Below the pieces are notes generated by a model. That model made no database searches, was not told the origin of the DNA, and saw only the letters and a list, made by a program, of their open reading frames with translations. DNA of 64,000 nucleotides from assembly GCF_013315695.1 (NCBI RefSeq), contig NZ_CP054353.1. One strand, written 5' to 3'. Origin of the DNA: Escherichia coli. Lineage in GTDB: Bacteria; Pseudomonadota; Gammaproteobacteria; Enterobacterales; Enterobacteriaceae. Of the stretch, positions 20,462-52,815 are shown one piece after another. The position numbers and the translations under genes are program-made. Position 1 is the first letter of the stretch. Each line of letters starts with the position of its first letter.

Positions 20462-22441
20462 TCAGTGAGATTTGACTGATTTTACCCCCAGCCAGTCAAT
20501 GATCCCCTGTGCCGCATGACGTCCTTCTGCCATTGCGGTAACCACCAGATCCGCACCACGCACGGCGTCACCACCGGCGAAGATTTTCGGATTGGTGGTC
20601 TGGTAACGGTACTGGCTTTCCACATCCGCGATGATGCGGCCCCATTTGTCTACCGTTACACCGTGCGACTCCAGCCACGGCATCCCGTGTGGATTGAAGC
20701 CAAACGCCATAATCACCGCGTCGGCTGGCATGACAAATTCACTGCCTTCCACCGGCACTGGACGCCGACGCCCCTGGGCATCCGGCTCGCCAAGACTCGT
20801 ACGCAGGAAACGAATTCCGCAAACGTGACCTTGCTCATTCAGCTCAAGCGCCACCGGCTGGACGTTAAATTCAAAGTTGGCCCCCTCTTCGCGGGCGTTC
20901 TTCACCTCTTTCTTCGAGCCTGGCATGTTAGCTTCATCACGACGATAAGCGCAGGTGACGTTACTCGCGCCGTGGCGCAGCGCGGTACGCACACAGTCCA
21001 TCGCGGTGTCGCCGCCGCCCAGTACCACGACGTTGAGTCCGGCGGTATTGATAAACGGCTCTTCCGGTAGCTCTTCGAGTCCCATCACCTGTTTAGTGTT
21101 GGCGATGAGGAACGGCAGGGCGTCATAAACGCCCGGCGCATCTTCATTGGGTAAACCCGCTTTCATGGAACGGTAAGTGCCTACGCCAACGAAGACCGCG
21201 TCGTATTGTTCCAAAAGCGAATCCAAAGAGACATCTTTACCCACTTCACAATTGAGTTCGAAGTGAATCCCCATCGCGCTGAAGATTTCCCGACGGCGTG
21301 CCAGCAGGGATTTATCCAGTTTGAAAGAAGGAATGCCGAAAGTGAGCAAGCCACCGATTTCTGGATGGCGATCGTACACCGTCACCGCCACGCCATTGCG
21401 GGTCAGAACATCCGCACAGGCCAGCCCTGCCGGACCTGCACCGATAATCGCCACCCGCTTGTCCACTTTGGTGACATGACTTAAGTCAGGACGCCAACCT
21501 TTCGCCAACGCCTGATCTGAAATGTAGCGTTCAATGTTGCCGATAGTTACTGCGCCGTGCTCATCGCGAATAGTACAGGCACCTTCACACAAACGGTCTT
21601 GCGGGCAAACGCGTCCGGTAATTTCCGGCAGGGTGTTGGTCTGGTGAGAAAGCTCGACGGCGGCGTCGATGTTTCCGGCTTTCACCAGTTCAATCCACTG
21701 CGGTATATGGTTATGCAGCGGGCAGGTCCATTCACAAACGCTGTGCTCGCCGCACTTAAGGCAGCGCGAGGCTTCCCGTTGTGCCTGATCGGCACGGAAT
21801 GGCAGATAAATTTCATCAAAACCGGTTTTGCGCGCTTCAATCGCCAGTTTGTCCGGCTCGCCACGCGCGGGCGTTGCCTGCATTTGCTCGACTTTACTCA
21901 TTACCGGCATTTCTTGTGCCGCGGTACTGGCATGCCACGGTTGATGTTCCTGACGTGCTGTGCGCAAGCGGCGGGATTTCGCTATGCCGGAGAGTGCGGC
22001 ATCAGTGACCAGTTGCAGCGCGTCTGCCGGGCAATTCTCGACACAGGCAGGACCGTTTTCGCGCCCTGCACAAAGGTCGCATTTATGCGCCGTGGCTTTA
22101 ACTTTGCCAGCCGCAACGGGTGTCAGGACGATTTGCATCGTACCAAATGGACAGGCCACCACGCAGGATTTACAGCCAATACACTTTTGCTGATTGACCT
22201 GAATGCTGTCATCAACGTGGCTGATTGCGCCATTAGGGCAGCTACGGGCGCAGGGCGCATCTTCACAATGGTGACAGGTCACTGCACTACGTTGCTGCTG
22301 ATGTTTGATAACCGTAATTCGGGGATGAAAATGGCGTTGGCTCAGGACATGTTGCTCGTCATTGTGAGCCATGACACAGGCGATTTCACAAGCATGACAA
22401 CCCAGACATTGCTGACTGTTGGCCATAATAAAACGATTCAT
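20462..22441 (-). CDS. aegA: AegA, Fe-S cluster and FAD/NAD(P)-binding oxidoreductase (GltD-like)
   Basis: 659-aa ORF with multiple CxxCxxCxxxCP ferredoxin motifs and a pyridine-nucleotide disulfide oxidoreductase-like C-terminal half. Confidence 0.9.
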   Translation of the reverse strand: MNRFIMANSQQCLGCHACEIACVMAHNDEQHVLSQRHFHPRITVIKHQQQRSAVTCHHCEDAPCARSCPNGAISHVDDSIQVNQQKCIGCKSCVVACPFGTMQIVLTPVAAGKVKATAHKCDLCAGRENGPACVENCPADALQLVTDAALSGIAKSRRLRTARQEHQPWHASTAAQEMPVMSKVEQMQATPARGEPDKLAIEARKTGFDEIYLPFRADQAQREASRCLKCGEHSVCEWTCPLHNHIPQWIELVKAGNIDAAVELSHQTNTLPEITGRVCPQDRLCEGACTIRDEHGAVTIGNIERYISDQALAKGWRPDLSHVTKVDKRVAIIGAGPAGLACADVLTRNGVAVTVYDRHPEIGGLLTFGIPSFKLDKSLLARRREIFSAMGIHFELNCEVGKDVSLDSLLEQYDAVFVGVGTYRSMKAGLPNEDAPGVYDALPFLIANTKQVMGLEELPEEPFINTAGLNVVVLGGGDTAMDCVRTALRHGASNVTCAYRRDEANMPGSKKEVKNAREEGANFEFNVQPVALELNEQGHVCGIRFLRTSLGEPDAQGRRRPVPVEGSEFVMPADAVIMAFGFNPHGMPWLESHGVTVDKWGRIIADVESQYRYQTTNPKIFAGGDAVRGADLVVTAMAEGRHAAQGIIDWLGVKSVKSH

Positions 22442-36792: not shown

Positions 36793-37365
36793 TTGACACT
36801 GTCATCGCAACATTATCTGGTGATCACTGCGTTGGGTGCCGATCGCCCTGGAATAGTGAACACCATCACCCGTCATGTCAGTAGTTGCGGCTGTAATATT
36901 GAAGACAGTCGCCTGGCGATGCTGGGAGAAGAGTTCACGTTTATCATGCTGCTTTCCGGTTCATGGAATGCCATTACTCTGATTGAATCAACGTTACCGT
37001 TGAAAGGTGCCGAACTGGATCTTTTAATCGTGATGAAGCGCACGACGGCGCGTCCGCGTCCGCCAATGCCAGCATCTGTCTGGGTTCAGGTCGATGTGGC
37101 AGACTCCCCGCATTTAATTGAACGCTTCACAGCACTTTTCGACGCGCATCATATGAACATTGCGGAACTGGTGTCACGCACGCAACCTGCTGAAAATGAA
37201 CGGGCTGCGCAGTTGCATATTCAGATTACTGCCCACAGCCCCGCATCTGCGGACGCAGCAAATATTGAGCAAGCGTTCAAAGCCCTATGTACAGAACTCA
37301 ATGCACAAGGCAGTATTAACGTCGTCAATTATTCCCAACATGATGAACAGGATGGAGTTAAGTAA
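36793..37365 (+). CDS. gcvR: Glycine cleavage system transcriptional repressor GcvR (TTG start)
   Basis: 190-aa product (M)TLSSQHYLVITALGADRPGIV... begins at TTG 36793; ACT-domain pair. Confidence 0.85.
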   Translation: MTLSSQHYLVITALGADRPGIVNTITRHVSSCGCNIEDSRLAMLGEEFTFIMLLSGSWNAITLIESTLPLKGAELDLLIVMKRTTARPRPPMPASVWVQVDVADSPHLIERFTALFDAHHMNIAELVSRTQPAENERAAQLHIQITAHSPASADAANIEQAFKALCTELNAQGSINVVNYSQHDEQDGVK

Positions 37366-37835
37366 TGAATCCACTGAAAGCCGGTGATATCGCACCGAAA
37401 TTTAGCTTGCCGGATCAAGACGGAGAACAAGTTAATTTGACCGACTTCCAGGGACAGCGTGTTCTGGTTTATTTCTACCCGAAAGCCATGACCCCCGGCT
37501 GTACCGTACAGGCCTGCGGCTTACGCGATAACATGGATGAGTTGAAAAAAGCGGGCGTTGATGTGCTGGGTATCAGCACCGATAAACCCGAAAAACTCTC
37601 CCGTTTTGCGGAAAAAGAGCTGCTTAACTTTACGCTCCTGTCTGATGAGGACCACCAGGTGTGCGAACAATTCGGCGTCTGGGGTGAAAAGTCCTTCATG
37701 GGCAAAACCTACGATGGTATTCATCGCATCAGCTTCCTGATTGACGCTGATGGCAAAATCGAACATGTCTTTGACGATTTCAAAACCAGCAATCACCACG
37801 ACGTTGTGCTGAACTGGCTGAAAGAACACGCCTGA
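37365..37835 (+). CDS. bcp: Thiol peroxidase Bcp (peroxiredoxin)
   Basis: 156-aa ORF with FYPKAMTPGCT peroxidatic-Cys motif; TAATG overlap with gcvR. Confidence 0.95.
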   Translation: MNPLKAGDIAPKFSLPDQDGEQVNLTDFQGQRVLVYFYPKAMTPGCTVQACGLRDNMDELKKAGVDVLGISTDKPEKLSRFAEKELLNFTLLSDEDHQVCEQFGVWGEKSFMGKTYDGIHRISFLIDADGKIEHVFDDFKTSNHHDVVLNWLKEHA

Positions 37836-38030
37836 TTACTTTGCTCCATTCCGTGCTGGCTGTGCTTGCGGCCAGCACACCTCACTTCTCGTGATCAAGA
37901 TCACATTCTCGCTTTCCCCTGCGACACGGGTGTCGAATCCATTTATTGCTGAACGTTAATGACCATCATTTTTGTACCGTTCAGAATCCAGTTAACACAT
38001 AAATTATTGAATATATTAAATTAATCAGAC

Positions 38031-38046
38031 TGGCATCCTTTATGCA
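38031..38046 (+). promoter_or_regulatory. Sigma-54 (-24/-12) promoter of the hyf operon
   Basis: TGGCATCCTTTATGCA: GG at 38032-33 and GC at 38044-45 with canonical spacing, about 40 bp upstream of hyfA ATG; consistent with a sigma-54 activator (HyfR) encoded in the operon. Confidence 0.65.
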
Positions 38047-38087
38047 ATATGAAATGCAATGTTTCATATCATTTTCAAGGAGCCGAC

Positions 38088-38705
38088 ATGAACCGCTTTG
38101 TGGTGGCCGAACCACTGTGGTGTACAGGATGTAATACCTGTCTCGCTGCCTGTTCGGACGTGCATAAAACGCAAGGTTTACAGCAACACCCGCGCCTGGC
38201 CCTGGCGAAGACGTCAACACTCACTGCCCCTGTCGTGTGTCATCACTGTGAGGAAGCCCCTTGCCTGCAGGTCTGCCCGGTCAATGCCATCTCCCAGAGG
38301 GATGATGCGATCCAACTCAACGAAAGCCTTTGTATTGGTTGCAAGCTTTGCGCCGTGGTCTGCCCATTTGGCGCAATCAGCGCTTCAGGAAGCCGTCCGG
38401 TGAATGCCCCTGCGCAATATGTTTTTCAGGCTGAGGGCTCACTCAAAGACGGCGAAGAAAACGTGTCGACCCAACATGCTTTGCTGCGCTGGGAACCGGG
38501 TGTCCAGACCGTCGCGGTGAAATGCGACCTGTGTGATTTCTTGCCAGAAGGTCCGGCCTGCGTTCGCGCTTGTCCGAATCAGGCGTTACGGCTGATCACC
38601 GACGATAGCCTGCAACGTCAGATGAAAGAAAAACAGCGCCTTGCCGCAAGCTGGTTTGCCAATGGCGGGGAGGATCCCCTTTCCCTCACTCAGGAGCAAC
38701 GCTAA
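38088..38705 (+). CDS. hyfA: Hydrogenase-4 component A, 4Fe-4S ferredoxin-type subunit
   Basis: 205-aa product MNRFVVAEPLWCTGCNTC... with several CxxCxxCxxxCP motifs; GGAG SD. Confidence 0.92.
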   Translation: MNRFVVAEPLWCTGCNTCLAACSDVHKTQGLQQHPRLALAKTSTLTAPVVCHHCEEAPCLQVCPVNAISQRDDAIQLNESLCIGCKLCAVVCPFGAISASGSRPVNAPAQYVFQAEGSLKDGEENVSTQHALLRWEPGVQTVAVKCDLCDFLPEGPACVRACPNQALRLITDDSLQRQMKEKQRLAASWFANGGEDPLSLTQEQR

Positions 38706-40723
38706 TGGATGCCCTGCAATTATTAACCTGGTCGCTGATCCTCTATCTGTTTGCCAGTCTGGCTTCGCTGTTTTTACTCGGTCTGGACAGACTGGCTATT
38801 AAGCTTTCCGGCATCACATCGCTGGTGGGCGGCGCGATTGGCATCATCAGCGGAATTACGCAATTACATGCAGGCGTAACTTTAGTCGCCCGTTTTGCCA
38901 CACCTTTTGAATTTGCCGATTTAACCCTGCGAATGGATAGCCTCTCGGCATTTATGGTGCTGGTTATCTCCTTGCTGGTGGTGTTTTGTTCGCTCTATTC
39001 ATTGACTTATATGCGCGAATACGAGGGTAAAGGCGCGGCGGCGATGGGCTTCTTTATGAATCTTTTCATCGCATCGATGGTTGCCCTGCTGGTGATGGAC
39101 AACGCTTTTTGGTTCATCGTGCTGTTTGAAATGATGTCGCTGTCTTCCTGGTTTCTGGTCATTGCCAGGCAGGATAAAACGTCGATCAACGCTGGCATGC
39201 TCTACTTTTTTATCGCCCACGCCGGATCGGTGCTGATTATGATCGCCTTCTTGCTGATGGGGCGCGAAAGCGGCAGCCTCGATTTTGCCAGTTTCCGCAC
39301 GCATTCACTTTCTCCGGGGCTGGCGTCGGCGGTGTTCCTGCTGGCCTTCTTCGGTTTTGGCGCGAAAGCCGGGATGATGCCGTTGCACAGCTGGTTGCCG
39401 CGCGCTCACCCTGCCGCACCATCGCACGCTTCGGCGTTGATGTCTGGCGTAATGGTCAAAATCGGTATTTTCGGCATCCTTAAAGTAGCGATGGATCTGC
39501 TGGCGCAAACGGGTTTGCCGCTGTGGTGGGGCATTCTGGTGATGGCGATCGGCGCAATCTCCGCGCTCCTGGGCGTGCTGTATGCGCTGGCGGAACAGGA
39601 TATCAAACGGCTGCTGGCCTGGAGTACCGTCGAAAACGTCGGCATTATTTTGCTGGCGGTCGGTGTGGCGATGGTCGGTCTGTCACTGCACGACCCGCTG
39701 CTCACCGTTGTTGGACTGCTCGGCGCGCTGTTTCATCTGCTCAACCATGCGCTGTTCAAAGGGCTGCTGTTTCTCGGCGCGGGTGCGATTATTTCGCGTT
39801 TGCATACCCACGACATGGAAAAAATGGGGGCACTGGCGAAACGTATGCCGTGGACAGCCGCAGCATGCCTGATTGGTTGCCTCGCGATATCAGCCATTCC
39901 TCCGCTGAATGGTTTTATCAGCGAATGGTACACCTGGCAGTCGCTGTTCTCACTAAGTCGTGTGGAAGCCGTAGCGCTACAACTTGCGGGTCCTATTGCT
40001 ATGGTGATGCTGGCAGTCACTGGTGGGCTGGCAGTAATGTGCTTCGTCAAAATGTACGGTATTACTTTCTGTGGAGCGCCGCGCAGTACACACGCTGAAG
40101 AGGCACAGGAAGTGCCAAATACGATGATCGTCGCCATGCTACTGCTCGCGGCACTCTGCGTATTCATTGCGCTTAGTGCCAGTTGGCTGGCACCGAAGAT
40201 AATGCACATTGCCCATGCGTTTACCAATACCCCTCCCGTCACTGTCGCCAGCGGAATAGCACTTGTACCCGGCACGTTTCATACACGGGTCACTCCCTCA
40301 TTACTGTTGCTGTTACTACTGGCGATGCCTTTGCTGCCTGGCCTTTACTGGCTGTGGTGTCGTTCGCGCCGCGCAGCGTTTCGTCGCACAGGAGATGCCT
40401 GGGCATGCGGCTACGGCTGGGATAATGCGATGGCCCCGTCAGGCAATGGCGTGATGCAGCCGCTGCGTGTGGTCTTTTGTGCGCTATTTCGTCTACGACA
40501 ACAGCTCGACCCTACGCTGAGGCTGAACAAAGGTCTTGCGCACGTCACCGCCAGGGCTCAGAGCACAGAACCCTTCTGGGATGAGCGGGTGATCCGCCCC
40601 ATCGTGAGCGCCACCCAACGGCTGGCCAAAGAAATACAGCATCTGCAAAGCGGCGACTTTCGTCTCTATTGCCTGTATGTGGTCGCCGCACTGGTTGTGC
40701 TGCTAATCGCTATTGCCGTCTAA
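38705..40723 (+). CDS. hyfB: Hydrogenase-4 membrane subunit B (NuoL/Mrp antiporter-like)
   Basis: 672-aa polytopic ORF. Confidence 0.92.
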   Translation: MDALQLLTWSLILYLFASLASLFLLGLDRLAIKLSGITSLVGGAIGIISGITQLHAGVTLVARFATPFEFADLTLRMDSLSAFMVLVISLLVVFCSLYSLTYMREYEGKGAAAMGFFMNLFIASMVALLVMDNAFWFIVLFEMMSLSSWFLVIARQDKTSINAGMLYFFIAHAGSVLIMIAFLLMGRESGSLDFASFRTHSLSPGLASAVFLLAFFGFGAKAGMMPLHSWLPRAHPAAPSHASALMSGVMVKIGIFGILKVAMDLLAQTGLPLWWGILVMAIGAISALLGVLYALAEQDIKRLLAWSTVENVGIILLAVGVAMVGLSLHDPLLTVVGLLGALFHLLNHALFKGLLFLGAGAIISRLHTHDMEKMGALAKRMPWTAAACLIGCLAISAIPPLNGFISEWYTWQSLFSLSRVEAVALQLAGPIAMVMLAVTGGLAVMCFVKMYGITFCGAPRSTHAEEAQEVPNTMIVAMLLLAALCVFIALSASWLAPKIMHIAHAFTNTPPVTVASGIALVPGTFHTRVTPSLLLLLLLAMPLLPGLYWLWCRSRRAAFRRTGDAWACGYGWDNAMAPSGNGVMQPLRVVFCALFRLRQQLDPTLRLNKGLAHVTARAQSTEPFWDERVIRPIVSATQRLAKEIQHLQSGDFRLYCLYVVAALVVLLIAIAV

Positions 40724-40733
40724 GGAAATCACC

Positions 40734-41681
40734 ATGAGACAAACTCTTTGCGACGGATATCTGATCATTTTTGCGTTAGCACAGGCCGTGATTCTGCTGG
40801 CGCTAACCCCGCTTTTTACGGGGATTTCCCGGCAGATACGCGCGCGAATGCACTCCCGTCGCGGACCGGGGATCTGGCAGGATTATCGCGATATCCACAA
40901 ACTGTTTAAACGCCAGGAAGTTGCGCCGACATCTTCAGGTCTGATGTTCCGCCTGATGCCGTGGGTATTAATCAGCAGCATGCTGGTGCTGGCGATGGCC
41001 CTACCACTATTTATTACCGTTTCCCCTTTTGCGGGCGGCGGCGATCTGATCACCCTTATCTATCTTCTTGCCCTGTTTCGTTTTTTCTTTGCTCTTTCCG
41101 GGCTGGATACCGGAAGCCCGTTTGCGGGAGTCGGTGCCAGTCGCGAGTTGACGCTCGGCATTCTGGTCGAACCCATGCTCATTCTCTCACTGCTGGTATT
41201 GGCGCTGATAGCGGATTCCACGCATATCGAGATGATCAGCAAGACGCTGGCGACGGGCTGGAACTCGCCGCTAACCACCGTACTGGCGTTACTGGCCTGT
41301 GGTTTTGCCTGCTTCATTGAGATGGGAAAAATTCCCTTTGATGTTGCTGAAGCAGAACAGGAATTACAGGAAGGCCCGCTGACCGAATATTCCGGTGCCG
41401 GGCTGGCGCTGGCGAAGTTGGGGCTGGGGCTGAAACAGGTCGTGATGGCATCACTGTTTGTGGCCCTGTTTCTGCCCTTTGGGCGCGCGCAAGAACTTTC
41501 TCTCGCCTGCCTGCTGACTTCACTTGTCGTTACGCTGCTCAAGGTTTTGCTGATTTTTGTACTGGCCTCAATCGCAGAAAACACGCTGGCACGCGGGCGT
41601 TTTTTACTCATTCACCATGTGACCTGGCTTGGCTTCAGCCTTGCTGCGCTTGCCTGGGTCTTCTGGTTAACCGGTCTGTAA
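40734..41681 (+). CDS. hyfC: Hydrogenase-4 membrane subunit C (NuoH-like)
   Basis: 315-aa product from ATG 40734 (MRQTLCDGYLIIFALAQ...). Confidence 0.9.
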   Translation: MRQTLCDGYLIIFALAQAVILLALTPLFTGISRQIRARMHSRRGPGIWQDYRDIHKLFKRQEVAPTSSGLMFRLMPWVLISSMLVLAMALPLFITVSPFAGGGDLITLIYLLALFRFFFALSGLDTGSPFAGVGASRELTLGILVEPMLILSLLVLALIADSTHIEMISKTLATGWNSPLTTVLALLACGFACFIEMGKIPFDVAEAEQELQEGPLTEYSGAGLALAKLGLGLKQVVMASLFVALFLPFGRAQELSLACLLTSLVVTLLKVLLIFVLASIAENTLARGRFLLIHHVTWLGFSLAALAWVFWLTGL

Positions 41682-41697
41682 GGAGCACTGACGGAAT

Positions 41698-43137
41698 ATG
41701 GAAAATCTTGCTCTGACGACGTTATTGCTGCCTTTTATCGGCGCACTGGTCGTTTCGTTTTCGCCACAACGTCGGGCCGCCGAATGGGGGATTTTGTTCG
41801 CCGCGCTGACCACGCTGTGCATGTTGTCGCTGATCTCCGCGTTTTATCAGGCCGATAAAGTTGCCGTCACGTTAACGTTGGTCCACGTGGGGGATGTGGC
41901 GTTGTTTGGCCTGGTCATTGATCGCGTGAGTACGCTGATTCTGTTTGTGGTGGTGTTCCTCGGTTTGCTGGTCACGATCTACTCCACGGGTTATCTGACG
42001 GATAAAAATCGCGAACACCCGCATAACGGCACGAATCGTTATTACGCATTTTTGCTGGTTTTTATCGGCGCGATGGCGGGACTGGTACTCTCCTCGACGC
42101 TGCTCGGTCAGTTGTTGTTTTTTGAAATTACGGGCGGCTGCTCCTGGGCGTTGATCAGTTATTACCAGAGCGATAAAGCGCAGCGTTCAGCACTAAAAGC
42201 GTTACTTATCACTCATATCGGTTCGCTGGGGTTGTATCTTGCCGCCGCCACGCTGTTTTTGCAGACCGGAACGTTTGCGCTCAGCGCTATGAGCGAGTTA
42301 CACGGCGACGCACGTTATCTGGTTTATGGCGGCATCCTGTTTGCCGCGTGGGGGAAATCGGCCCAGCTACCGATGCAAGCGTGGCTACCGGATGCAATGG
42401 AAGCGCCAACACCGATCAGCGCCTATCTCCACGCCGCATCGATGGTGAAAGTGGGCGTTTACATTTTTGCCCGTGCCATTATCGACGGCGGCAATATCCC
42501 GCATGTGATTGGCGGCGTTGGCATGGTTATGGCACTGGTCACCATTCTTTACGGCTTCCTGATGTATTTGCCACAGCAGGATATGAAGCGGTTGCTGGCC
42601 TGGTCGACCATCACTCAACTTGGCTGGATGTTTTTCGGCTTGTCGCTCTCCATCTTCGGCTCGCGACTGGCGCTGGAGGGCAGCATCGCCTACATCGTCA
42701 ACCACGCGTTCGCTAAAAGCCTATTTTTCCTTGTAGCAGGTGCGCTGAGTTACAGCTGCGGCACGCGCTTGTTGCCGCGTCTGCGTGGCGTATTGCACAC
42801 CCTGCCGTTGCCAGGCGTGGGTTTCTGCGTAGCCGCGCTGGCGATTACTGGCGTACCGCCGTTCAACGGCTTCTTCAGTAAATTCCCGCTGTTTGCTGCC
42901 GGTTTTTCGTTGTCAGTGGAGTACTGGATCCTGCTGCCCGCCATGATTCTGCTGATGATTGAATCGGTCGCCAGTTTCGCCTGGTTTATTCGCTGGTTTG
43001 GTCGCGTCGTGCCTGGCAAACCGAGCGAGGCCGTCGCCGATGCCGCACCGCTGCCAGGATCAATGCGCCTGGTGTTGATTGTACTGATTGTGATGTCGCT
43101 GATTTCCAGCGTAATCGCCGCGACCTGGTTGCAGTAA
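41698..43137 (+). CDS. hyfD: Hydrogenase-4 membrane subunit D (antiporter-like)
   Basis: 479-aa polytopic ORF. Confidence 0.92.
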   Translation: MENLALTTLLLPFIGALVVSFSPQRRAAEWGILFAALTTLCMLSLISAFYQADKVAVTLTLVHVGDVALFGLVIDRVSTLILFVVVFLGLLVTIYSTGYLTDKNREHPHNGTNRYYAFLLVFIGAMAGLVLSSTLLGQLLFFEITGGCSWALISYYQSDKAQRSALKALLITHIGSLGLYLAAATLFLQTGTFALSAMSELHGDARYLVYGGILFAAWGKSAQLPMQAWLPDAMEAPTPISAYLHAASMVKVGVYIFARAIIDGGNIPHVIGGVGMVMALVTILYGFLMYLPQQDMKRLLAWSTITQLGWMFFGLSLSIFGSRLALEGSIAYIVNHAFAKSLFFLVAGALSYSCGTRLLPRLRGVLHTLPLPGVGFCVAALAITGVPPFNGFFSKFPLFAAGFSLSVEYWILLPAMILLMIESVASFAWFIRWFGRVVPGKPSEAVADAAPLPGSMRLVLIVLIVMSLISSVIAATWLQ

Positions 43138-43148
43138 GGAGATGATGA

Positions 43149-43799
43149 ATGACCGGTTCTATGATCGTAAATAATCTGGCGGGACTGATGATGCTGACAT
43201 CGCTGTTTGTGATTAGCGTCAAAAGCTATCGCCTGTCATGCGGATTTTACGCCTGCCAGTCGCTGGTGCTGGTGTCTATTTTCGCCACTCTCTCGTGTCT
43301 GTTCGTCGCAGAGCAACTGCTGATCTGGTCCGCCAGCGCCTTTATCACCAAAGTGCTGCTGGTACCGTTAATCATGATTTACGCTGCACGAAATATTCCC
43401 CAGAACATCCCGGAAAAAGCGTTATTCGGTCCGGCAATGATGGCATTGCTCGCGGCATTAATTGTCCTGCTTTGCGCATTTGTCGTTCAGTCCGTGAAGC
43501 TACCGATGGCTACCGGGCTGAAACCGGCGCTGGCGGTGGCGTTAGGTCATTTTCTGCTTGGCCTGCTGTGCATTGTCAGCCAGCGCAATATCCTGCGGCA
43601 AATTTTTGGTTACTGCCTGATGGAAAACGGCTCCCATCTGGTGCTGGCGCTTCTAGCCTGGCGTGCACCGGAACTGGTGGAAATTGGTATCGCTACCGAC
43701 GCCATCTTCGCCGTCATTGTGATGGTGTTACTGGCAAGAAAAATATGGCGTACCCACGGCACGCTGGACGTGAACAACTTGACCGCGCTGAAGGGATAA
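43149..43799 (+). CDS. hyfE: Hydrogenase-4 membrane subunit E
   Basis: 216-aa hydrophobic ORF. Confidence 0.9.
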
Positions 43800-43803
43800 T
43801 GAG

Positions 43804-45384
43804 ATGAGTTATTCTGTGATGTTCGCTTTACTCCTGCTCACGCCGCTGCTTTTTTCGCTGCTCTGTTTTGCCTGCCGGAAACGGGGGCACTCTCCGACTC
43901 GCGCGGTGACAGTATTACATAGCTTAGGGATCACACTGCTGCTGATTCTGGCACTCTGGGTGGTCCAAACTGCCGCTGATGCGGGAGAAATATTCGCTGC
44001 GGGACTGTGGCTTCATATTGATGGTCTGGGCGGTTTGTTCCTCGCCATTCTTGGTGTGATTGGCTTTCTCACCGGTGTTTACTCGATTGGCTACATGCGT
44101 CATAAAGTGGAGCACGGCGAGCTTTCACCCGTTACGCTGTGCGATTACTACGGTTTCTTCCATCTGTTTTTGTTCACCATGCTGCTGGTTGTTACCAGCA
44201 ATAACCTGATTGTGATGTGGGCGGCGATCGAAGCCACCACCTTAAGCTCGGCGTTTCTGGTAGGCATTTACGGTCAGCGTTCATCGCTGGAAGCTGCATG
44301 GAAGTACATCATTATTTGTACTGTTGGTGTCGCTTTTGGTCTGTTCGGTACCGTGCTGGTATACGCCAACGCCGCCAGCGTTATGCCGCAGGCAGAAATG
44401 GCGATATTCTGGAGCGAGGTTCTTAAGCAATCGTCCTTGCTTGACCCAACATTAATGCTGTTGGCCTTTGTGTTTGTGCTAATTGGCTTTGGCACTAAAA
44501 CCGGGCTATTCCCCATGCACGCCTGGCTGCCAGATGCTCACAGTGAAGCGCCGAGTCCGGTCAGCGCCCTGCTCTCCGCCGTATTGCTGAACTGCGCGCT
44601 GTTGGTGCTTATTCGCTATTACATCATTATTTGCCAGGCCATCGGCAGCGATTTCCCCAACCGGTTGTTGCTCATCTTCGGCATGTTGTCGGTTGCCGTG
44701 GCGGCATTTTTCATTCTGGTACAGCGGGACATTAAGCGTCTGCTGGCGTACTCCAGCGTGGAGAACATGGGACTGGTCGCGGTGGCGCTAGGCATTGGCG
44801 GGCCGCTGGGAATTTTTGCTGCGCTGCTGCACACCTTAAACCACAGTCTGGCAAAAACGCTGCTGTTCTGCGGTTCCGGCAATGTACTGCTCAAGTACGG
44901 CACGCGCGATCTCAACGTCGTCTGCGGAATGCTCAAAATCATGCCATTTACCGCCGTGCTGTTTGGCGGCGGTGCGCTGGCGCTGGCCGGGATGCCGCCC
45001 TTCAACATTTTTCTTAGCGAATTTATGACCGTTACCGCCGGACTGGCGCGTAATCACCTGCTGATTATCGTCCTGCTGTTATTGCTGTTAACGCTGGTGC
45101 TGGCGGGCCTGGTACGGATGGCTGCGCGGGTGTTAATGGCGAAACCGCCGCAGGCCGTTAACCGGGGTGAACTTGGCTGGTTGACCACCTCGCCAATGGT
45201 GATTCTGCTGGTCATGATGCTGGCGATGGGAACGCATATTCCACAACCTGTCATCAGGATCCTGGCGGGCGCTTCCACTATAGTCCTCTCAGGGACGCAC
45301 GACCTGCCTGCACAACGTAGCACCTGGCATGATTTTTTGCCTTCAGGCACCGCATCTGTTTCGGAGAAACACAGTGAACGTTAA
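43804..45384 (+). CDS. hyfF: Hydrogenase-4 membrane subunit F (antiporter-like)
   Basis: 526-aa polytopic ORF. Confidence 0.92.
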
Positions 45385-47089
45385 TTCATCGTCAAATCGT
45401 GGCGAAGCGATTCTCGCCGCCCTGAAAACGCAGTTCCCCGGCGCGGTGCTGGATGAAGAGCGACAAACGCCTGAACAGGTCACCATTACGGTGAAAATAA
45501 ATCTGCTGCCTGACGTTGTACATTATCTTTATTATCAACATGATGGCTGGCTTCCGGTCCTGTTTGGCAACGACGAGCGGACACTTAACGGTCATTACGC
45601 GGTTTATTATGCCCTTTCAATGGAAGGGGCCGAAAAATGCTGGATCGTGGTGAAGGCACTGGTCGATGCCGACAGTCGGGAGTTTCCGTCAGTCACACCG
45701 CGCGTCCCTGCCGCGGTCTGGGGCGAGCGAGAAATTCGCGATATGTACGGGTTGATTCCGGTTGGCCTGCCGGATCAGCGTCGGCTGGTGTTGCCCGATG
45801 ACTGGCCGGAAGATATGCATCCGCTGCGCAAAGACGCGATGGATTATCGACTGCGCCCAGAACCGACGACTGATACCGAAACGTATCCGTTTATCAACGA
45901 GGGCAACAGCGATGCGCGGGTGATCCCTGTCGGCCCGCTGCATATCACCTCCGATGAACCAGGTCACTTCCGCTTGTTTGTGGATGGCGAGCAAATTGTC
46001 GATGCTGATTACCGCCTGTTTTATGTCCATCGCGGCATGGAGAAACTGGCAGAAACGCGGATGGGCTACAACGAAGTGACCTTCTTGTCGGACCGCGTGT
46101 GTGGGATTTGCGGTTTTGCCCACAGTGTGGCCTATACCAACTCGGTTGAAAATGCACTGGGGATTGAGGTGCCGCAACGAGCGCATACTATTCGCTCGAT
46201 TCTGCTGGAAGTCGAACGGCTGCATAGTCATTTGCTCAACCTTGGCCTCTCCTGCCATTTTGTTGGTTTTGATACCGGCTTTATGCAATTTTTCCGCGTG
46301 CGGGAAAAGTCGATGACGATGGCGGAATTGCTGACCGGGTCGCGTAAAACCTACGGTCTGAATCTGATTGGTGGTGTTCGCCGCGATATTCTCAAAGAGC
46401 AACGTCTGCAAACGCTGAAACTGGTGCGCGAGATGCGTGCCGACGTGTCGGAGCTGGTAGAGATGCTGCTTGCCACGCCGAATATGGAACAACGCACTCA
46501 GGGCATTGGCATTCTCGACCGACAAATCGCCCGTGATTATAGCCCCGTAGGGCCGCTGATCCGCGGCAGTGGTTTTGCCCGTGATTTGCGCTTTGATCAC
46601 CCCTACGCCGACTACGGCAATATTCCCAAAACGCTGTTTACCTTTACCGGCGGCGATGTCTTCTCCCGCGTGATGGTCCGTGTCAAAGAGACGTTTGATT
46701 CGCTGGCAATGCTGGAATTTGCCCTCGACAACATGCCGGATACCCCACTGCTGACCGAAGGCTTTAGCTATAAACCTCACGCATTCGCGCTGGGCTTTGT
46801 TGAAGCGCCACGCGGTGAAGACGTGCACTGGAGCATGCTCGGTGATAACCAAAAATTGTTCCGCTGGCGCTGTCGTGCCGCCACCTACGCCAACTGGCCA
46901 GTGCTGCGTTACATGCTGCGCGGCAATACCGTTTCTGACGCACCGCTGATTATCGGTAGCCTTGATCCCTGTTACTCCTGTACCGACCGTGTGACGCTGG
47001 TTGATGTGCGCAAGCGCCAGTCAAAAACCGTGCCGTATAAAGAGATCGAACGCTACGGCATTGATCGTAACCGTTCGCCGCTGAAGTAA
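45374..47089 (+). CDS. hyfG: Hydrogenase-4 [NiFe] large subunit HyfG (HycE-like); start codon uncertain (GTG proposed)
   Basis: N-terminal CxxC (RVCGICG) and C-terminal DPCYSCTDR Ni-binding motifs; GTG 45374 preceded by GGAGA; overlaps hyfF 3' end. Confidence 0.85.
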
Positions 47090-47098
47090 GGACAGAAA

Positions 47099-47644
47099 AT
47101 GCTGAAGTTACTGAAAACTATTATGCGCGCCGGAACCGCGACGGTGAAATATCCCTTCGCGCCACTGGAGGTCAGCCCAGGCTTTCGCGGGAAACCGGAC
47201 CTGATGCCCAGCCAATGTATTGCCTGCGGTGCCTGCGCCTGTGCTTGTCCGGCAAATGCGCTGACTATCCAGACCGACGACCAGCAAAATACGCGCACCT
47301 GGCAGCTCTATCTGGGGCGTTGTATTTACTGCGGACGTTGTGAAGAAGTGTGCCCGACCAGAGCCATTCAGCTTACCAATAACTTTGAACTGACCGTCAC
47401 CAATAAAGCCGATCTCTATACCCGCGCGACGTTCCATCTACAACGTTGCAGCCGTTGCGAACGCCCGTTTGCCCCGCAAAAAACCGTCGCACTGGCTGCA
47501 GAACTGTTGGCACAGCAACAAAATGCACCACAAAACCGCGAAATGTTACGGGCGCAAGCGAGCGTCTGCCCGGAATGCAAACAACGCGCGACGCTGATCA
47601 ACGACGACACAAATGAACCGCTGGTGGCTAAGGAGCAGCTATGA
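47099..47644 (+). CDS. hyfH: Hydrogenase-4 Fe-S subunit H (NuoI-like, two 4Fe-4S)
   Basis: 181-aa ORF with [12 protein letters not shown] and [12 protein letters not shown] motifs. Confidence 0.92.
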
Positions 47645-48399
47645 GTCCAGTGCTTACGCAACATGTCAGCCAGCCCATTACGCTGGACGAGCAAACGCAA
47701 AAGATGAAGCAGCATTTGCTACAGGATATCCGTCGCTCGGCTTACGTTTATCGCGTCGATTGCGGCGGCTGTAACGCCTGCGAAATCGAAATTTTTGCTG
47801 CCATCACACCCGTATTCGACGCAGAACGTTTTGGCATTAAGGTTGTTTCATCACCGCGTCACGCCGATATTTTGTTATTTACTGGCGCAGTCACCCGGGC
47901 GATGCGTATGCCTGCACTTCGGGCATATGAGTCTGCCCCCGATCATAAAATCTGTGTTTCCTACGGCGCGTGCGGTGTCGGCGGCGGTATTTTCCACGAT
48001 CTTTACAGCGTCTGGGGCGGCAGCGACACCATTGTCCCCATTGATGTTTGGATCCCCGGCTGCCCGCCAACACCGGTCGCCACCATTCACGGTTTCGCCG
48101 TGGCGCTCGGTTTGCTGCAACAGAAGATTCACGCGGTGGATTATCGCGATCCCACCGGGGTGACCATGCAACCGCTGTGGCCGCAGATCCCGCCATCACA
48201 GCGTATCGCCATTGAGCGAGAAGCGAGGCGGTTGGCGGGCTATCGTCAGGGGCGAGAAATTTGCGATCGGCTCCTGCGCCATTTAAGCGACGATCCTACA
48301 GGAAATCGGGTTAACACCTGGTTGCGCGAAGCTGACGATCCACGTCTCAATAGTATCGTTCAGCAACTCTTTCGCGTTCTCCGGGGGTTACATGGCTGA
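47641..48399 (+). CDS. hyfI: Hydrogenase-4 small subunit I (NuoB-like)
   Basis: 252-aa ORF; ATGA overlap with hyfH. Confidence 0.92.
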
Positions 48400-48805
48400 G
48401 GCGTGCGGGGAAATTGTTTTCTGGACGCTGCGAAAAAAGTTTGTCGCCAGTAGCGACGAGATGCCGGAACACAGCTCTCAGGTAATGTATTACTCGCTGG
48501 CTATCGGCCATCACGTTGGCGTGATTGATTGTCTGAATGTCGCCTTCCGCTGCCCACTGACGGAATACGAAGATTGGCTTGCACTGGTCGAAGAGGAGCA
48601 AGCCCGACGTAAGATGCTGGGGGTGATGACTTTTGGTGAGATTGTTATTGACGCCAGCCACACCGCCCTGTTGACCCGGGCATTCGCGCCAGTGGCAGAT
48701 GACGCGACGTCGGCGTGGCAGGCGCGTAGCATTCAATTCATTCATCTGTTGGATGAAATTGTGCAGGAACCGGCCATCTATCTGATGGCCAGAAAAATTG
48801 CGTGA
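48392..48805 (+). CDS. hyfJ: HyfJ (HycH-like hydrogenase assembly/maturation factor)
   Basis: 137-aa ORF, operon position. Confidence 0.88.
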
Positions 48806-48834
48806 GAAGGATTTCTCATTAATAAGGACTGTTG

Positions 48835-50847
48835 ATGGCTATGTCAGACGAGGCGATGTTTGCCCCGCCGCAAGGAATAACAATTGAAGCGGTAAACGGA
48901 ATGCTCGCGGAGCGGTTAGCGCAGAAACACGGCAAGGCGTCTTTATTACGCGCCTTCATCCCGCTGCCGCCGCCGTTCAGCCCGGTACAACTTATTGAAC
49001 TGCATGTTCTCAAAAGCAACTTCTATTACCGCTACCATGATGATGGCAGCGATGTGACGGCAACAACAGAGTATCAGGGTGAGATGGTCGATTATTCGCG
49101 CCACGCCGTCCTTCTCGGCAGTAGTGGAATGGCGGAGCTACGCTTTATTCGCACTCACGGCAGCCGTTTTACTCCCCAGGATTGCACACTGTTTAACTGG
49201 CTGGCACACATAATCACTCCGGTTCTGCAATCATGGCTCAATGATGAAGAACAGCAGGTGGCGCTGCGTTTGCTGGAGAAAGATCGCGATCATCATCGGG
49301 TACTGGTGGATATCACTAATGCAGTGTTGTCACATCTTGATCTCGACGATCTGATCGCTGACGTCGCTCGTGAGATCCATCATTTTTTCGGTCTGGCTTC
49401 AGTCAGTATGGTACTGGGCGATCATCGAAAGAACGAGAAGTTCAGCCTGTGGTGCAGCGATCTTTCTGCCTCACATTGTGCGTGTCTGCCACGCTGTATG
49501 CCTGGCGAAAGTGTATTGCTGACACAAACGCTACAAACCCGACAACCGACCTTGACGCACCGTGCAGACGATCTGTTTCTCTGGCAACGCGACCCGTTAT
49601 TACACTTACTTGCATCTAACGGCTGCGAATCTGCGCTCCTTATACCGCTCACCTTTGGCAACCATACACCGGGTGCATTGTTGCTGGCGCATACCTCTTC
49701 CACTCTCTTTAGTGAGGAAAACTGCCAGCTACTACAACATATTGCCGATCGCATCGCTATTGCCGTTGGCAATGCCGATGCCTGGCGTAGCATGACCGAT
49801 TTGCAGGAAAGCTTGCAGCAAGAAAACCACCAGCTTAGCGAGCAGCTCCTTTCGAATCTGGGCGTCGGTGACATTATCTATCAAAGCCAGGCAATGGAAG
49901 ATTTGCTCCAGCAGGTAGATATTGTGGCGAAGAGCGACAGTACGGTGTTGATTTGTGGTGAAACCGGAACCGGCAAAGAGGTGATCGCCAGAGCGATCCA
50001 TCAACTTAGCCCACGACGCGACAAGCCACTGGTCAAAATCAACTGCGCTGCCATCCCCGCCAGTCTTCTGGAAAGTGAGTTATTCGGTCATGACAAAGGG
50101 GCATTTACTGGTGCGATTAATACCCATCGTGGTCGTTTTGAAATTGCCGATGGCGGCACGTTGTTTCTCGATGAAATTGGCGATCTGCCGTTAGAACTTC
50201 AGCCTAAACTGCTGCGCGTATTGCAGGAACGGGAGATTGAGCGTCTCGGCGGGAGTAGAACGATCCCGGTAAATGTCAGAGTCATTGCCGCCACCAACCG
50301 TGATTTGTGGCAAATGGTTGAAGATCGCCAGTTTCGCAGCGATCTCTTTTATCGCCTGAATGTCTTCCCACTGGAACTGCCGCCACTGCGCGACCGTCCG
50401 GAAGATATCCCTCTTTTAGCAAAGCATTTCACGCAAAAAATGGCGCGCCATATGAATCGCGCAATTGACGCCATCCCGACCGAGGCGCTACGCCAGTTGA
50501 TGTCGTGGGACTGGCCGGGCAACGTGCGCGAGCTGGAAAACGTGATTGAGCGAGCGGTACTACTGACTCGCGGTAACAGTCTGAATTTACATCTTAATGT
50601 CCGACAAAGCCGTTTACTGCCGACGCTAAATGAAGATTCAGCGCTTCGCAGTTCAATGGTGCAGTTGCTGCACCCGACGACGCCAGAGAATGACGAAGAA
50701 GAACGTCAGCGCATTGTTCAGGTATTGCGAGAAACCAATGGCATTGTTGCCGGGCCCCGTGGCGCGGCGACGCGATTAGGGATGAAGCGCACCACGCTGC
50801 TGTCACGAATGCAGCGTCTGGGGATCTCGGTTCGCGAGGTGTTGTAA
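48835..50847 (+). CDS. hyfR: Sigma-54-dependent transcriptional activator HyfR (FhlA-like)
   Basis: 670-aa product MAMSDEAMF...; GAF region, AAA+ sigma-54 interaction domain ([14 protein letters not shown]), C-terminal HTH. Confidence 0.93.
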
Positions 50848-50868
50848 TCTGCTTTTGCAGGAGTATTC

Positions 50869-51717
50869 ATGAGAAACAAACTCTCTTTCGACTTGCAGTT
50901 GAGCGCCAGAAAAGCGGCAATCGCTGAACGGATTGCCGCCCATAAAATTGCCCGCAGCAAAGTGTCGGTCTTTTTAATGGCGATGTCCGCAGGTGTGTTT
51001 ATGGCGATCGGATTTACTTTTTACCTTACCGTTATCGCCGATGCCCCGTCTTCACAGGCATTAACCCATCTGGTGGGAGGCCTTTGCTTTACACTCGGCT
51101 TTATTTTGCTGGCGGTTTGCGGCACCAGCCTGTTCACCTCGTCGGTAATGACGGTGATGGCAAAAAGTCGGGGCGTTATTAGTTGGCGAACATGGCTGAT
51201 TAACGCACTTCTGGTGGCCTGCGGTAATCTGGCAGGTATTGCCTGTTTCAGTTTGTTAATCTGGTTTTCCGGGCTGGTGATGAGTGAAAACGCGATGTGG
51301 GGAGTCGCGGTTTTACACTGCGCCGAGGGCAAAATGCATCATACATTTACTGAATCAGTCAGCCTCGGCATTATGTGCAATGTGATGGTTTGCCTGGCGC
51401 TGTGGATGAGTTATTGCGGACGTTCGTTATGCGACAAAATCGTCGCCATGATTTTGCCCATCACCCTGTTTGTCGCCAGTGGCTTTGAGCACTGTATCGC
51501 CAATTTGTTTGTGATTCCGTTCGCCATTGCCATTCGCCATTTCGCCCCTACCTCCTTCTGGCAACTGGCGCACAGTAGCGCAGACCATTTTCCGGCACTG
51601 ACGGTCAGCCATTTTATTACCGCCAATCTGCTCCCGGTGATGCTGGGTAATATTATCGGCGGTGCAGTGCTGGTGAGTATTTGTTATCGGGCTATTTATT
51701 TACGTCAGGAACCCTAA
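50869..51717 (+). CDS. focB: Formate channel FocB (FNT family)
   Basis: 282-aa polytopic ORF, FNT family. Confidence 0.92.
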   Translation: MRNKLSFDLQLSARKAAIAERIAAHKIARSKVSVFLMAMSAGVFMAIGFTFYLTVIADAPSSQALTHLVGGLCFTLGFILLAVCGTSLFTSSVMTVMAKSRGVISWRTWLINALLVACGNLAGIACFSLLIWFSGLVMSENAMWGVAVLHCAEGKMHHTFTESVSLGIMCNVMVCLALWMSYCGRSLCDKIVAMILPITLFVASGFEHCIANLFVIPFAIAIRHFAPTSFWQLAHSSADHFPALTVSHFITANLLPVMLGNIIGGAVLVSICYRAIYLRQEP

Positions 51718-51753
51718 AAATCAGCCCGGCGAAACAGTTCGTCGGGCTGAAGA

Positions 51754-52815
51754 TTATTCTTGCGCGATTTGCCCATCGGGCCAGGCGTGAATCACGGCTT
51801 TGATCAACGTCGCCAATGGAATGGCGAAGAATACGCCCCAGAATCCCCACAAACCACCGAAGATCACTACTGATAAAATAATGACCAGCGGATGCAGGTT
51901 AACCGCTTCGGAGAACAACACAGGTACTAACAGGTTGCCGTCCAGCGCCTGAATAATCAGATACACCGCGAAGCAGCTCCAGAATTCCGTGCCAGCACCA
52001 AACTGGAATAGCGCCACGCCAACCACCGGAATGGTCACCACAAATGCACCAATGTACGGAATAAGTACCGAGAAGCCGACCAGCACCGCCAGCAGCAGCG
52101 AATAGTTCAGCCCGAAGAGTAAGAACCCCAGCCAGGTGGCGATCCCCACCACGATCATCTCCAGCACTTTGCCGCGGATATAGTTGGTGATTTGTTGATT
52201 CATCTCCTTCCACACCTGTCCTGCCAGCCCACGGTTGCGCGGCAGCACCCGGCGAACGGCATTCAGCATCTGCTCTTTGTCTTTCAGCAGGAAGAAGACC
52301 ATCAATGGTACCAGCACCAGATAGACGGCAATGGTCAGCAAACCGACCAGCGAGGCGAGGGAAATTTTCACCACCGAATCGCCCATGGTCAGCATCCGAC
52401 TGCGCATATTTTCGGCCATTGCATCAATAATGCCCGCGTCCATTAACGCCGGATAGCGGCGCGGCAACGTGGCGGCAAAGTCAGAAAGCTTATTGAGCAT
52501 CCCCGGCATATCGCGAATTAAGTAGATGCCCTGCTGCCAGGCGATAGGCAATACCACGAACGCCATCAGTAGCAATATACCGACGAAAACCACCAATACA
52601 ATCGACGTCGCCCAGCGGCGGGAGCAGCCAATAGATTGCAGGCGCACGGTTGGCCATTCCAGCAAATAGGCCAGCACAATAGCCACCAGCAACGGAGCAA
52701 GCAGGCCACTAAAGAAAAAGATAATGCCAAATCCGGCAACTAAAATAACCAGCAAGGCAATCGCTTCCGGGTCGCTAAAACGGCGGCGATACCATTGCAT
52801 CAACATTTCGAGCAT
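51754..52815 (-). CDS. perM: PerM (YfgO), AI-2E family permease
   Basis: 353-aa polytopic membrane ORF. Confidence 0.88.
   Translation of the reverse strand: MLEMLMQWYRRRFSDPEAIALLVILVAGFGIIFFFSGLLAPLLVAIVLAYLLEWPTVRLQSIGCSRRWATSIVLVVFVGILLLMAFVVLPIAWQQGIYLIRDMPGMLNKLSDFAATLPRRYPALMDAGIIDAMAENMRSRMLTMGDSVVKISLASLVGLLTIAVYLVLVPLMVFFLLKDKEQMLNAVRRVLPRNRGLAGQVWKEMNQQITNYIRGKVLEMIVVGIATWLGFLLFGLNYSLLLAVLVGFSVLIPYIGAFVVTIPVVGVALFQFGAGTEFWSCFAVYLIIQALDGNLLVPVLFSEAVNLHPLVIILSVVIFGGLWGFWGVFFAIPLATLIKAVIHAWPDGQIAQE

Follow-up and report, generated by a model that had tools for sequence, protein, structure and literature searches.

We analyzed the spacer between bcp and hyfA in a 64,000-nucleotide stretch of Escherichia coli chromosome (hereafter the window), in which the gene order is gcvR-bcp-hyfA-hyfB. 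The results indicate that positions 37890-38057 very probably control the hyf operon of E. coli, which encodes hydrogenase-4, as a composite region in which a CRP site, an activator box and a sigma-54 promoter are combined. This is largely a known promoter, and the original prediction, which had been made from the sequence and placed two inverted repeats (repeat 1 and repeat 2) upstream of it as candidate activating sites, mis-assigned one of the two. The points that our analysis adds are modest: a geometry of the elements that is fixed across genera, an unexplained invariant block (block 3), and an atypical, G-rich center of the E. coli activator box (Box A).

The features on which the argument rests are the following, with positions relative to the predicted transcription start where a center is given:

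37365-37835, + strand: bcp (thiol peroxidase) coding sequence, from the open reading frame (ORF) listing and the annotation of identical E. coli records and of K-12.
37853-37879, + strand: GC-rich hairpin 3' of bcp, 11-bp stem with arms GTGCTGGC/GCCAGCAC, terminator-like, without a U-tract.
37890-37905, no strand: CRP site cGTGA-TCAAGA-TCACA, centered at about -159.5, from the consensus match, published ChIP-seq and SELEX, and conservation.
37922-37935, no strand: Box A, probable FhlA/HyfR-type activating site CGACAC-GG-GTGTCG, centered at about -128.5, from the form of the box and conservation.
37960-37975, + strand: block 3, TGACCATCAYTTTTGT, centered at about -89.5, from conservation in the spacer alignment.
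38000-38012, - strand: IHF-like site ATTCAATAATTTA, centered at about -51, a 12/13 match to WATCAANNNNTTR with a conserved position.
38031-38046, + strand: sigma-54 promoter hyfAp, TGGCAT-CCTTT-ATGCA, from the RpoN matrix, published ChIP-seq and SELEX, and conservation.
38088-38705, + strand: hyfA, which opens the hyf operon and encodes 205 aa, from the ORF listing and annotation including that of K-12.
48835-50847, + strand: hyfR, operon-encoded sigma-54 enhancer-binding protein, from the ORF, which is intact in this strain.

Results

Genomic context of the control region

Over a 1.5-kb segment around the control region, several E. coli genomes with the annotation gcvR-bcp-hyfA-hyfB show 100% identity. 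The spacer in which the predicted elements fall measures 252 bp, from the end of bcp at 37835 to the hyfA ATG at 38088. The upstream neighbor bcp lies outside the hyf regulatory unit, and the 3' end of the bcp unit is marked by the hairpin at 37853-37879, which folds as RNA with -23.5 kcal/mol (z = -3.5). The terminator scan left this hairpin uncalled because it has no T-run; in the spacer alignment, a different GC-rich inverted repeat occupies the same place in other genera. A scan of 37600-38300 against Rfam returned no family, its two sub-threshold hits being chance matches only. At the hyfA end of the spacer, the Shine-Dalgarno sequence GGAG is found at 38079-38082, and the ATGAACCGCTTTG start is conserved in the alignment together with this ribosome-binding site.

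The whole hyf module is absent from 1,129 of the 5,426 complete E. coli genomes (~21%). In these hyf-negative genomes, similarity to the window stops at about 37888, slightly 5' of where the CRP site begins, and resumes at about 51755, beside the yfgO stop, with some 50 unrelated bases in between. As the break lies just 5' of the CRP site, this site belongs to the hyf module rather than to bcp. Among all 4,297 E. coli genomes that do have hyf, identity over the 95-nt region from the CRP site through Box A to block 3 never falls below 96.7%.

The sigma-54 promoter

The promoter motif TGGCATCCTTTATGCA is located at 38031-38046, exactly where the original prediction had put it, and 41 nt separate its end from the hyfA ATG at 38088, in keeping with the 40 bp or so that had been estimated. 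It had been written as TGGCAT-N7-TGCA; the interval is N6 in the sequence, and the canonical GG/GC spacing that had also been proposed is borne out, with GG at 38032-38033 and GC at 38044-38045. The motif is a 14/16 match to the consensus TGGCAC-N5-TTGCA. With an RpoN matrix built on 186 promoters (printed in PMC7658346) it scores 12.1 bits and is the sole positive match of note in the intergenic region. Its TGGCA...T..TGC positions are invariant across 7 lineages, and in 24 of the 27 other listed hyf-type loci, hyfA is preceded by a strong RpoN match.

Published binding data agree with the sigma-54 reading. The identical motif underlies the K-12 sigma-54 ChIP-seq peak OS23 (Bonocora et al. 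2015), which has a FAT score of 16 and carries the EcoCyc flag for experimental confirmation; its predicted start lies 31 bp before hyfA. The hyfA promoter is also the strongest peak of RpoN-holoenzyme genomic SELEX. From the predicted start of OS23, transcription would begin at about 38057, which places the GG at -25/-24 and the GC at -13/-12. The sigma-54 call was thus correct and had already been experimentally established. No sigma-70-like promoter was found by a scan of 37700-38200. Skibinski et al. 2002 are said to have mapped the start 30 nt upstream of hyfA, to have found hyf expression dependent on sigma-54, FhlA and HyfR, and to have observed binding of HyfR to a promoter fragment. 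K-12 hyfAp is the same locus as that in the window: none of the four elements (16-nt promoter motif, CRP site, Box A, block 3) differs, and strain-level substitutions fall outside the motifs only (e.g., a C in place of A directly 5' of TGGCAT and an A in place of T at 37955).

Conservation and spacing of the elements

Motif and symmetry alone are at chance level: our own count of 6-2-6 inverted repeats in the window gave 22 against 19.1 +/- 4.3 expected, and the sigma-54 consensus with up to two mismatches occurs 33 times against 30.7 expected, so that significance must come from position, conservation and experiment. A repeat search with a seed of 6 listed neither of the two repeats. In these respects, i.e., position, cross-genus conservation and published binding data, the elements do stand above chance. 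The alignment comprised eight bcp-hyfA spacers from three genera (Escherichia, Citrobacter and Kosakonia), Escherichia being sampled via the E. coli collection only. The proportion of invariant columns among four lineages was as follows:

CRP half-sites: about 90%
Box A arms: 91%
block 3: 94%
sigma-54 core: 62%
segments between the elements: 0-17%

Besides, the distances between the elements are constant to within 1-2 bp across the three genera: the CRP site and Box A are 32 bp apart in all eight sequences, Box A and block 3 are 37-38 bp apart, and block 3 and TGGCA 70-72 bp.

Repeat 1 is a CRP site

Repeat 1 (cGTGATCAAGATCACA / GTGATCAAGATCAC) is located at 37891-37904, inside the CRP site, which contains two GATC sites. 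It had been described as a perfect palindrome; it actually consists of 6-bp arms around a non-self-complementary AA. With its flanks, it agrees with TGTGA-N6-TCACA at 9/10 positions. In the CRP ChIP-seq data for ETEC H10407, precisely the 16-mer CGTGATCAAGATCACA appears as a high-confidence site attributed to hyfA, and hyfA is among the known cAMP-CRP targets recovered by genomic SELEX. The orthologous sites read TGTGA-TCGCAA-TCACA in C. amalonaticus, TGTGA-CTAATA-TCACA in Citrobacter spp. and TTTGA-CCGCGA-TCACA in Kosakonia, i.e., in Citrobacter and Kosakonia the half-sites are kept and the spacer varies freely. Since repeat 1 is bound by CRP in vivo and its half-sites are conserved around a free spacer, it is a CRP site and not a site for an enhancer-binding protein. 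The requirement of cAMP-CRP for optimal HyfR-driven hyf expression, reportedly a result of Self et al. 2004, is part of the background to this locus.

Repeat 2 is a probable FhlA/HyfR site

Repeat 2, GACACGGGTGTC, lies at 37923-37934 as predicted and extends to CGACACGGGTGTCG, with 6-bp arms, at 37922-37935; in this extended form it is a 6-2-6 inverted repeat rather than a perfect palindrome. The distances of the two repeats from the -24 element had been estimated well, their centers lying 134.5 bp (repeat 1) and 103.5 bp (repeat 2) from the GG. In K-12, where hydN and fdhF are established targets of FhlA, their upstream boxes are CGACACTAGTGACG and CGTCAGTTTTGACG, centered at about -95 and -105 from their sigma-54 starts. 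These two boxes and hyf CGACACGGGTGTCG define the form CGWCA-N4-TGWCG, and Box A is the sole exact CGWCANNNNTGWCG match in the window.

A scan with HyfA yielded 45 loci in other genera. If one mismatch is allowed, the relaxed box CGWCA-N4-TGNCG is found in 28/28 hyf-type loci, at 100-300 bp before the ATG; these loci are phylogenetically related and not independent. In nearly all 28 a strong sigma-54 motif follows downstream. Exact matches to the relaxed form occur at 5.5/kb in the upstream regions versus 0.075/kb in the rest of the loci (~74-fold), an enrichment that is partly circular because the pattern was defined partly from hyf and then searched. The CGACAC-N3-TG-N-CGA of Box A is invariant in 7 lineages. 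Box A starts 110 bp upstream of the -24 element, inside the range of 65-140 bp set for such a site; the offset is the same in Kosakonia, and in Citrobacter and Atlantibacter it is within 1-2 bp of the E. coli value.

The presence of an activator encoded by the operon itself, which the original prediction had invoked, is confirmed by the intact hyfR ORF. HyfR shares 51% identity with K-12 FhlA, and the two proteins have the same recognition helix (KRTTLLSRM) in the C-terminal HTH, so HyfR and FhlA should both read Box A. Box A obtains 4.7 bits with a published 13-site FhlA matrix. With a 27-box matrix trained on independent boxes, none of them from the bcp-linked lineage, E. coli Box A obtains 4.0 bits and its Citrobacter and Kosakonia orthologues 15.6-21.7 bits. 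The low E. coli value is due to the G-rich center (CGGG), and the E. coli site may therefore be weak. No HyfR or FhlA footprint on hyf was found in the literature searched, Skibinski 2002 and Self 2004 lying outside that search. Altogether, the form shared with hydN and fdhF, the relaxed box in every hyf-type locus and the shared helix lend comparative support to this half of the prediction, and Box A is a probable FhlA/HyfR activating site.

The original prediction had regarded both inverted repeats as HyfR/FhlA upstream activating sequences. The published FhlA matrix would agree, as its best intergenic score is that of repeat 1 (TGATCAAGATCACA, 10.3 bits), which ranks 25 of ~128,000 window positions; furthermore, a pair of sites is common for enhancer-binding proteins, and the distance between the two repeats here is 31 bp. 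However, repeat 1 is without the CGWCA/TGWCG arms and fails matrix positions 4 and 11 (C4 and G11), two of the five strongest, and it is the 9/10 CRP match that published ChIP-seq found occupied in vivo. Other genera keep only TGTGA/TCACA with a free center, which is the signature of CRP. A site of the repeat 1 type is found in no hyf-type locus outside the bcp-hyfA group, whereas the CGWCA-N4-TGNCG box is in all of them. On the basis of the CRP binding data and the conservation pattern, we rejected the preference of the FhlA matrix for repeat 1, and a function of both repeats as activating sequences appears very unlikely. That repeat 1 might be an FNR site for anaerobic hyf induction is also very unlikely: GTGAT-CAAG-ATCAC is an 8/10 match to TTGAT-N4-ATCAA, and hyfA is one of the genes for which Myers et al. 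give a predicted FNR site and earlier evidence of control by FNR, but they class this site as silent, i.e., unbound in FNR ChIP-seq. Moreover, the discriminating base is the G of the CRP type (GTGA), the orthologues have TGTGA, and the occupancy demonstrated by published ChIP-seq is that of CRP. As to chance symmetries without function, the frequency of 6-2-6 repeats in the window given above is compatible with them and the terminator and promoter scans flag nothing. Against this, both repeat cores are about 90% invariant across three genera amid surroundings of 0-17%, the spacing is fixed and repeat 1 is occupied by CRP in ChIP-seq, so that this reading can practically be dismissed.

Block 3 and the IHF-like site

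Two further elements had been overlooked in the original prediction. Block 3 is, with its 16 bp, the most conserved element of the intergenic region: apart from a single Y position, its sequence is the same in Escherichia, in two Kosakonia and in three lineages of Citrobacter, with flanks of 8-12% invariant columns. It is exact only in the bcp-linked lineage and not present in two Atlantibacter lineages, and it scores weakly as a box in both FhlA-type matrices. In a related locus (L014), CCATCAC is found at the offset of block 3, and the Atlantibacter loci have CGACA repeats in that stretch. For this reason our best guess is that block 3 may be a promoter-proximal, non-canonical second FhlA/HyfR contact. 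In a comparison by eye with the motifs of Fur, FNR, ArcA, NarL, ModE, IscR, Fis, Cra, the LacI family, GadE and EvgA, none fits its invariant positions. FNR at block 3 was rejected, since TTAAT-GACC-ATCAT, although an 8/10 match, is missing the critical G and other genera have not retained it.

A serious, if less likely, alternative is that block 3 makes no activator contact and instead either serves a sigma-70 promoter as its -35 element or binds a different regulator. RpoD-holoenzyme binding in the bcp/hyfA spacer was described by Shimada et al. 2014, who proposed ATGACC-17-CAGAAT, with a -35 that overlaps block 3; the poor scores of the block with both FhlA-type matrices and its confinement to the lineage with hyf at the bcp locus would also fit. 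However, the proposed -10 CAGAAT is not conserved in Citrobacter and Kosakonia, and we rejected this promoter on that account as the reason for the conservation of block 3, whose invariance over 16 bp goes far beyond the needs of a -35 hexamer. In addition, the sigma-70 scan was negative, and the constant 37-38 bp offset from Box A together with the CGACA-type half-sites in related loci fit a second activator site, which remains the reading that we prefer.

The IHF-like site sits between the upstream sites and the promoter. Matches occupy the corresponding position in K-12, C. amalonaticus, Citrobacter R56 (a perfect one, AATCAACTGGTTA) and K. pseudosacchari; the position of the site is conserved in 4/5 lineages tested, one Kosakonia lineage falling below the 12/13 threshold. 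The intergenic region holds 2 such matches versus 0.37 expected, and the AA and TTGA columns of the site are invariant in 7 lineages.

Discussion

The conserved elements and their fixed spacing, both observed here, are consistent with the following mechanism. Sigma-54 RNA polymerase, whose binding is established by published ChIP/SELEX as is that of CRP, would sit as a closed complex on TGGCAT-N5-ATGCA (38031-38046), with the start near 38057, and would initiate only upon remodeling by an AAA+ enhancer-binding protein, either FhlA or the operon's own HyfR. From the form and conservation of the sites, we infer that this activator would most probably occupy the 14-bp CGACACGGGTGTCG at about -128 (37922-37935), and perhaps the invariant block TGACCATCATTTTTGT at about -90 (37960-37975) as well. 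IHF, at the putative site at about -51, would bend the intervening AT-rich DNA so that the activator reaches the polymerase, and ATP hydrolysis by the activator would then lead to promoter opening. cAMP-CRP at about -160 might modulate assembly of the activator and tie hyf expression to catabolite status. In every genus examined, the CRP site precedes Box A by exactly three helical turns, or 32 bp, which suggests an architectural action of CRP on the activator complex; a positive role of this kind is deduced from the fixed spacing only.

Such a positive, architectural role of CRP at a sigma-54 promoter is unusual. glnAp2 of E. coli and dctA of Sinorhizobium have, like hyf, a consensus-type CRP site far upstream of a sigma-54 promoter. 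At both, CRP inhibits, while at hyf cAMP-CRP is reportedly needed for optimal expression (Self et al. 2004). In contrast to glnAp2 and dctA, in hyf the CRP site lies upstream of the activator site at exactly 32 bp, an arrangement conserved across genera.

A more elaborate proposal, which is rather unlikely as a whole, is that the fixed spacing of CRP site, Box A and block 3 across the three genera defines a dedicated enhancer in which CRP would be an architectural co-activator and block 3 either a HyfR-specific contact or the site of some further factor, letting HyfR rather than FhlA drive hyf, with the G-rich center of Box A weakening binding. If this were true, the CGGG center would help to explain why hyf is near-silent in E. 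coli. The poor expression of hydrogenase-4 (formate hydrogenlyase-2) in this species has blocked the study of its physiology, and a correct map of the elements (CRP at -160, probable FhlA/HyfR box at -128, invariant block at -90, putative IHF site at -51, sigma-54 at -24/-12) points to mutations or swaps that are expected to unlock expression.

Among the closest known systems is the formate regulon with its upstream activating sequences for FhlA (Schlensog 1994; Leonhartsberger 2000; matrix in PMC7658346). At fdhF, hydN-hypF and hycA/hypA, as in hyf, the sigma-54 promoter is preceded at a distance of about 100 bp by a 14-bp CGWCA-N4-TGWCG, an AT-rich region of the IHF type separates box and promoter, and the HTH of the cognate regulator, FhlA or HyfR, is nearly identical. 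However, the hyf box is further upstream (about -128, compared with about -95 and -105), and its center is G-rich (CGGG) whereas it is A/T-rich in 27/27 training boxes. Moreover, the hyf box is paired with a non-canonical invariant block and not with a second clear box, and it has a CRP site attached, unlike the formate regulon. With regard to IHF-assisted looping of the nifH and hyc/hyp type, the putative hyf site at about -51 resembles these systems in lying between the activator sites and the -24/-12 elements, although in hyf it is predicted from the sequence, with a 12/13 match in E. coli.

Conservation of the bcp-hyfA intergenic region across genera

The most conserved non-coding element of the 252-bp bcp-hyfA spacer is block 3, the 16-bp sequence TGACCATCAYTTTTGT (37960-37975), in which no variation was found across Escherichia, Citrobacter and Kosakonia. 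Comparison by eye with regulator motifs gave no convincing fit to a known one. Block 3 is bracketed in E. coli by an inverted repeat that is specific to this species, its right arm not being kept in other genera; two further inverted repeats of the spacer are listed with it.

37853-37879, strong hairpin 3' of bcp (-23.5 kcal/mol), without a U-tract
37949-37984, inverted repeat CTGAACGTTA / TACCGTTCAG around block 3
38047-38069, inverted repeat ATATGAAA / TTTCATAT, covering the predicted transcription start (~38057) and running into the beginning of the 5' UTR

At the place of the bcp hairpin, other genera carry a GC-rich inverted repeat of different sequence, indicating that structure rather than sequence is conserved there. 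The repeat over the transcription start is not conserved outside E. coli.

In Box A (37922-37935), the probable FhlA/HyfR box, the E. coli centre is rich in G (CGGG) and the right arm reads TGTCG; in the loci compared from Citrobacter, Kosakonia and Atlantibacter (L005-L010), the centres are A/T-rich and the right arm is TGCCG. With a matrix trained on 27 boxes, none of them from the bcp-linked lineage, the E. coli box scored 4.0 bits, whereas the Citrobacter and Kosakonia orthologues reached 15.6-21.7 bits. This low-scoring box may have a bearing on the weak native expression of hyf. The HyfA-based scan of genome contigs returned no locus from an Escherichia species, even though its peptide patterns were derived from E. 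coli HyfA.

Start codon of hyfA

A mechanical ORF list placed hyfA at 38049-38705 (218 aa), from an upstream ATG at 38049. A start at 38088, giving a protein of 205 aa, is supported by three things: the annotation, the ATGAACCGC start and a Shine-Dalgarno sequence that is conserved.

Presence or absence of the hyf module

The entire module, from the CRP site to focB (37888-51755), is a presence/absence polymorphism in E. coli, missing in 1,129 of the 5,426 complete genomes. Where it is missing, some 50 bases of unrelated sequence separate bcp from yfgO. On the left, the breakpoint falls just 5' of the CRP site, at a distance of a few bases.

Other regulatory-site matches

Three further matches in the window are listed here.

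22363-22378, CRP consensus site with one mismatch, TGTGAGCCATGACACA
42393-42408, minus strand, sigma-54-like motif within the hyf operon, TGGCGCTTCCATTGCA, one mismatch
42519-42534, plus strand, sigma-54-like motif within the hyf operon, TGGCATGGTTATGGCA

The sequence TGTGAGCCATGACACA is identical to the site given for aegA/narQ in the CRP ChIP-seq data of ETEC H10407. The highest score of the whole window with the published RpoN matrix, 14.5 bits, belongs to TGGCATGGTTATGGCA, and both this motif and TGGCGCTTCCATTGCA are possible examples of the intragenic sigma-54 sites described by Bonocora et al.
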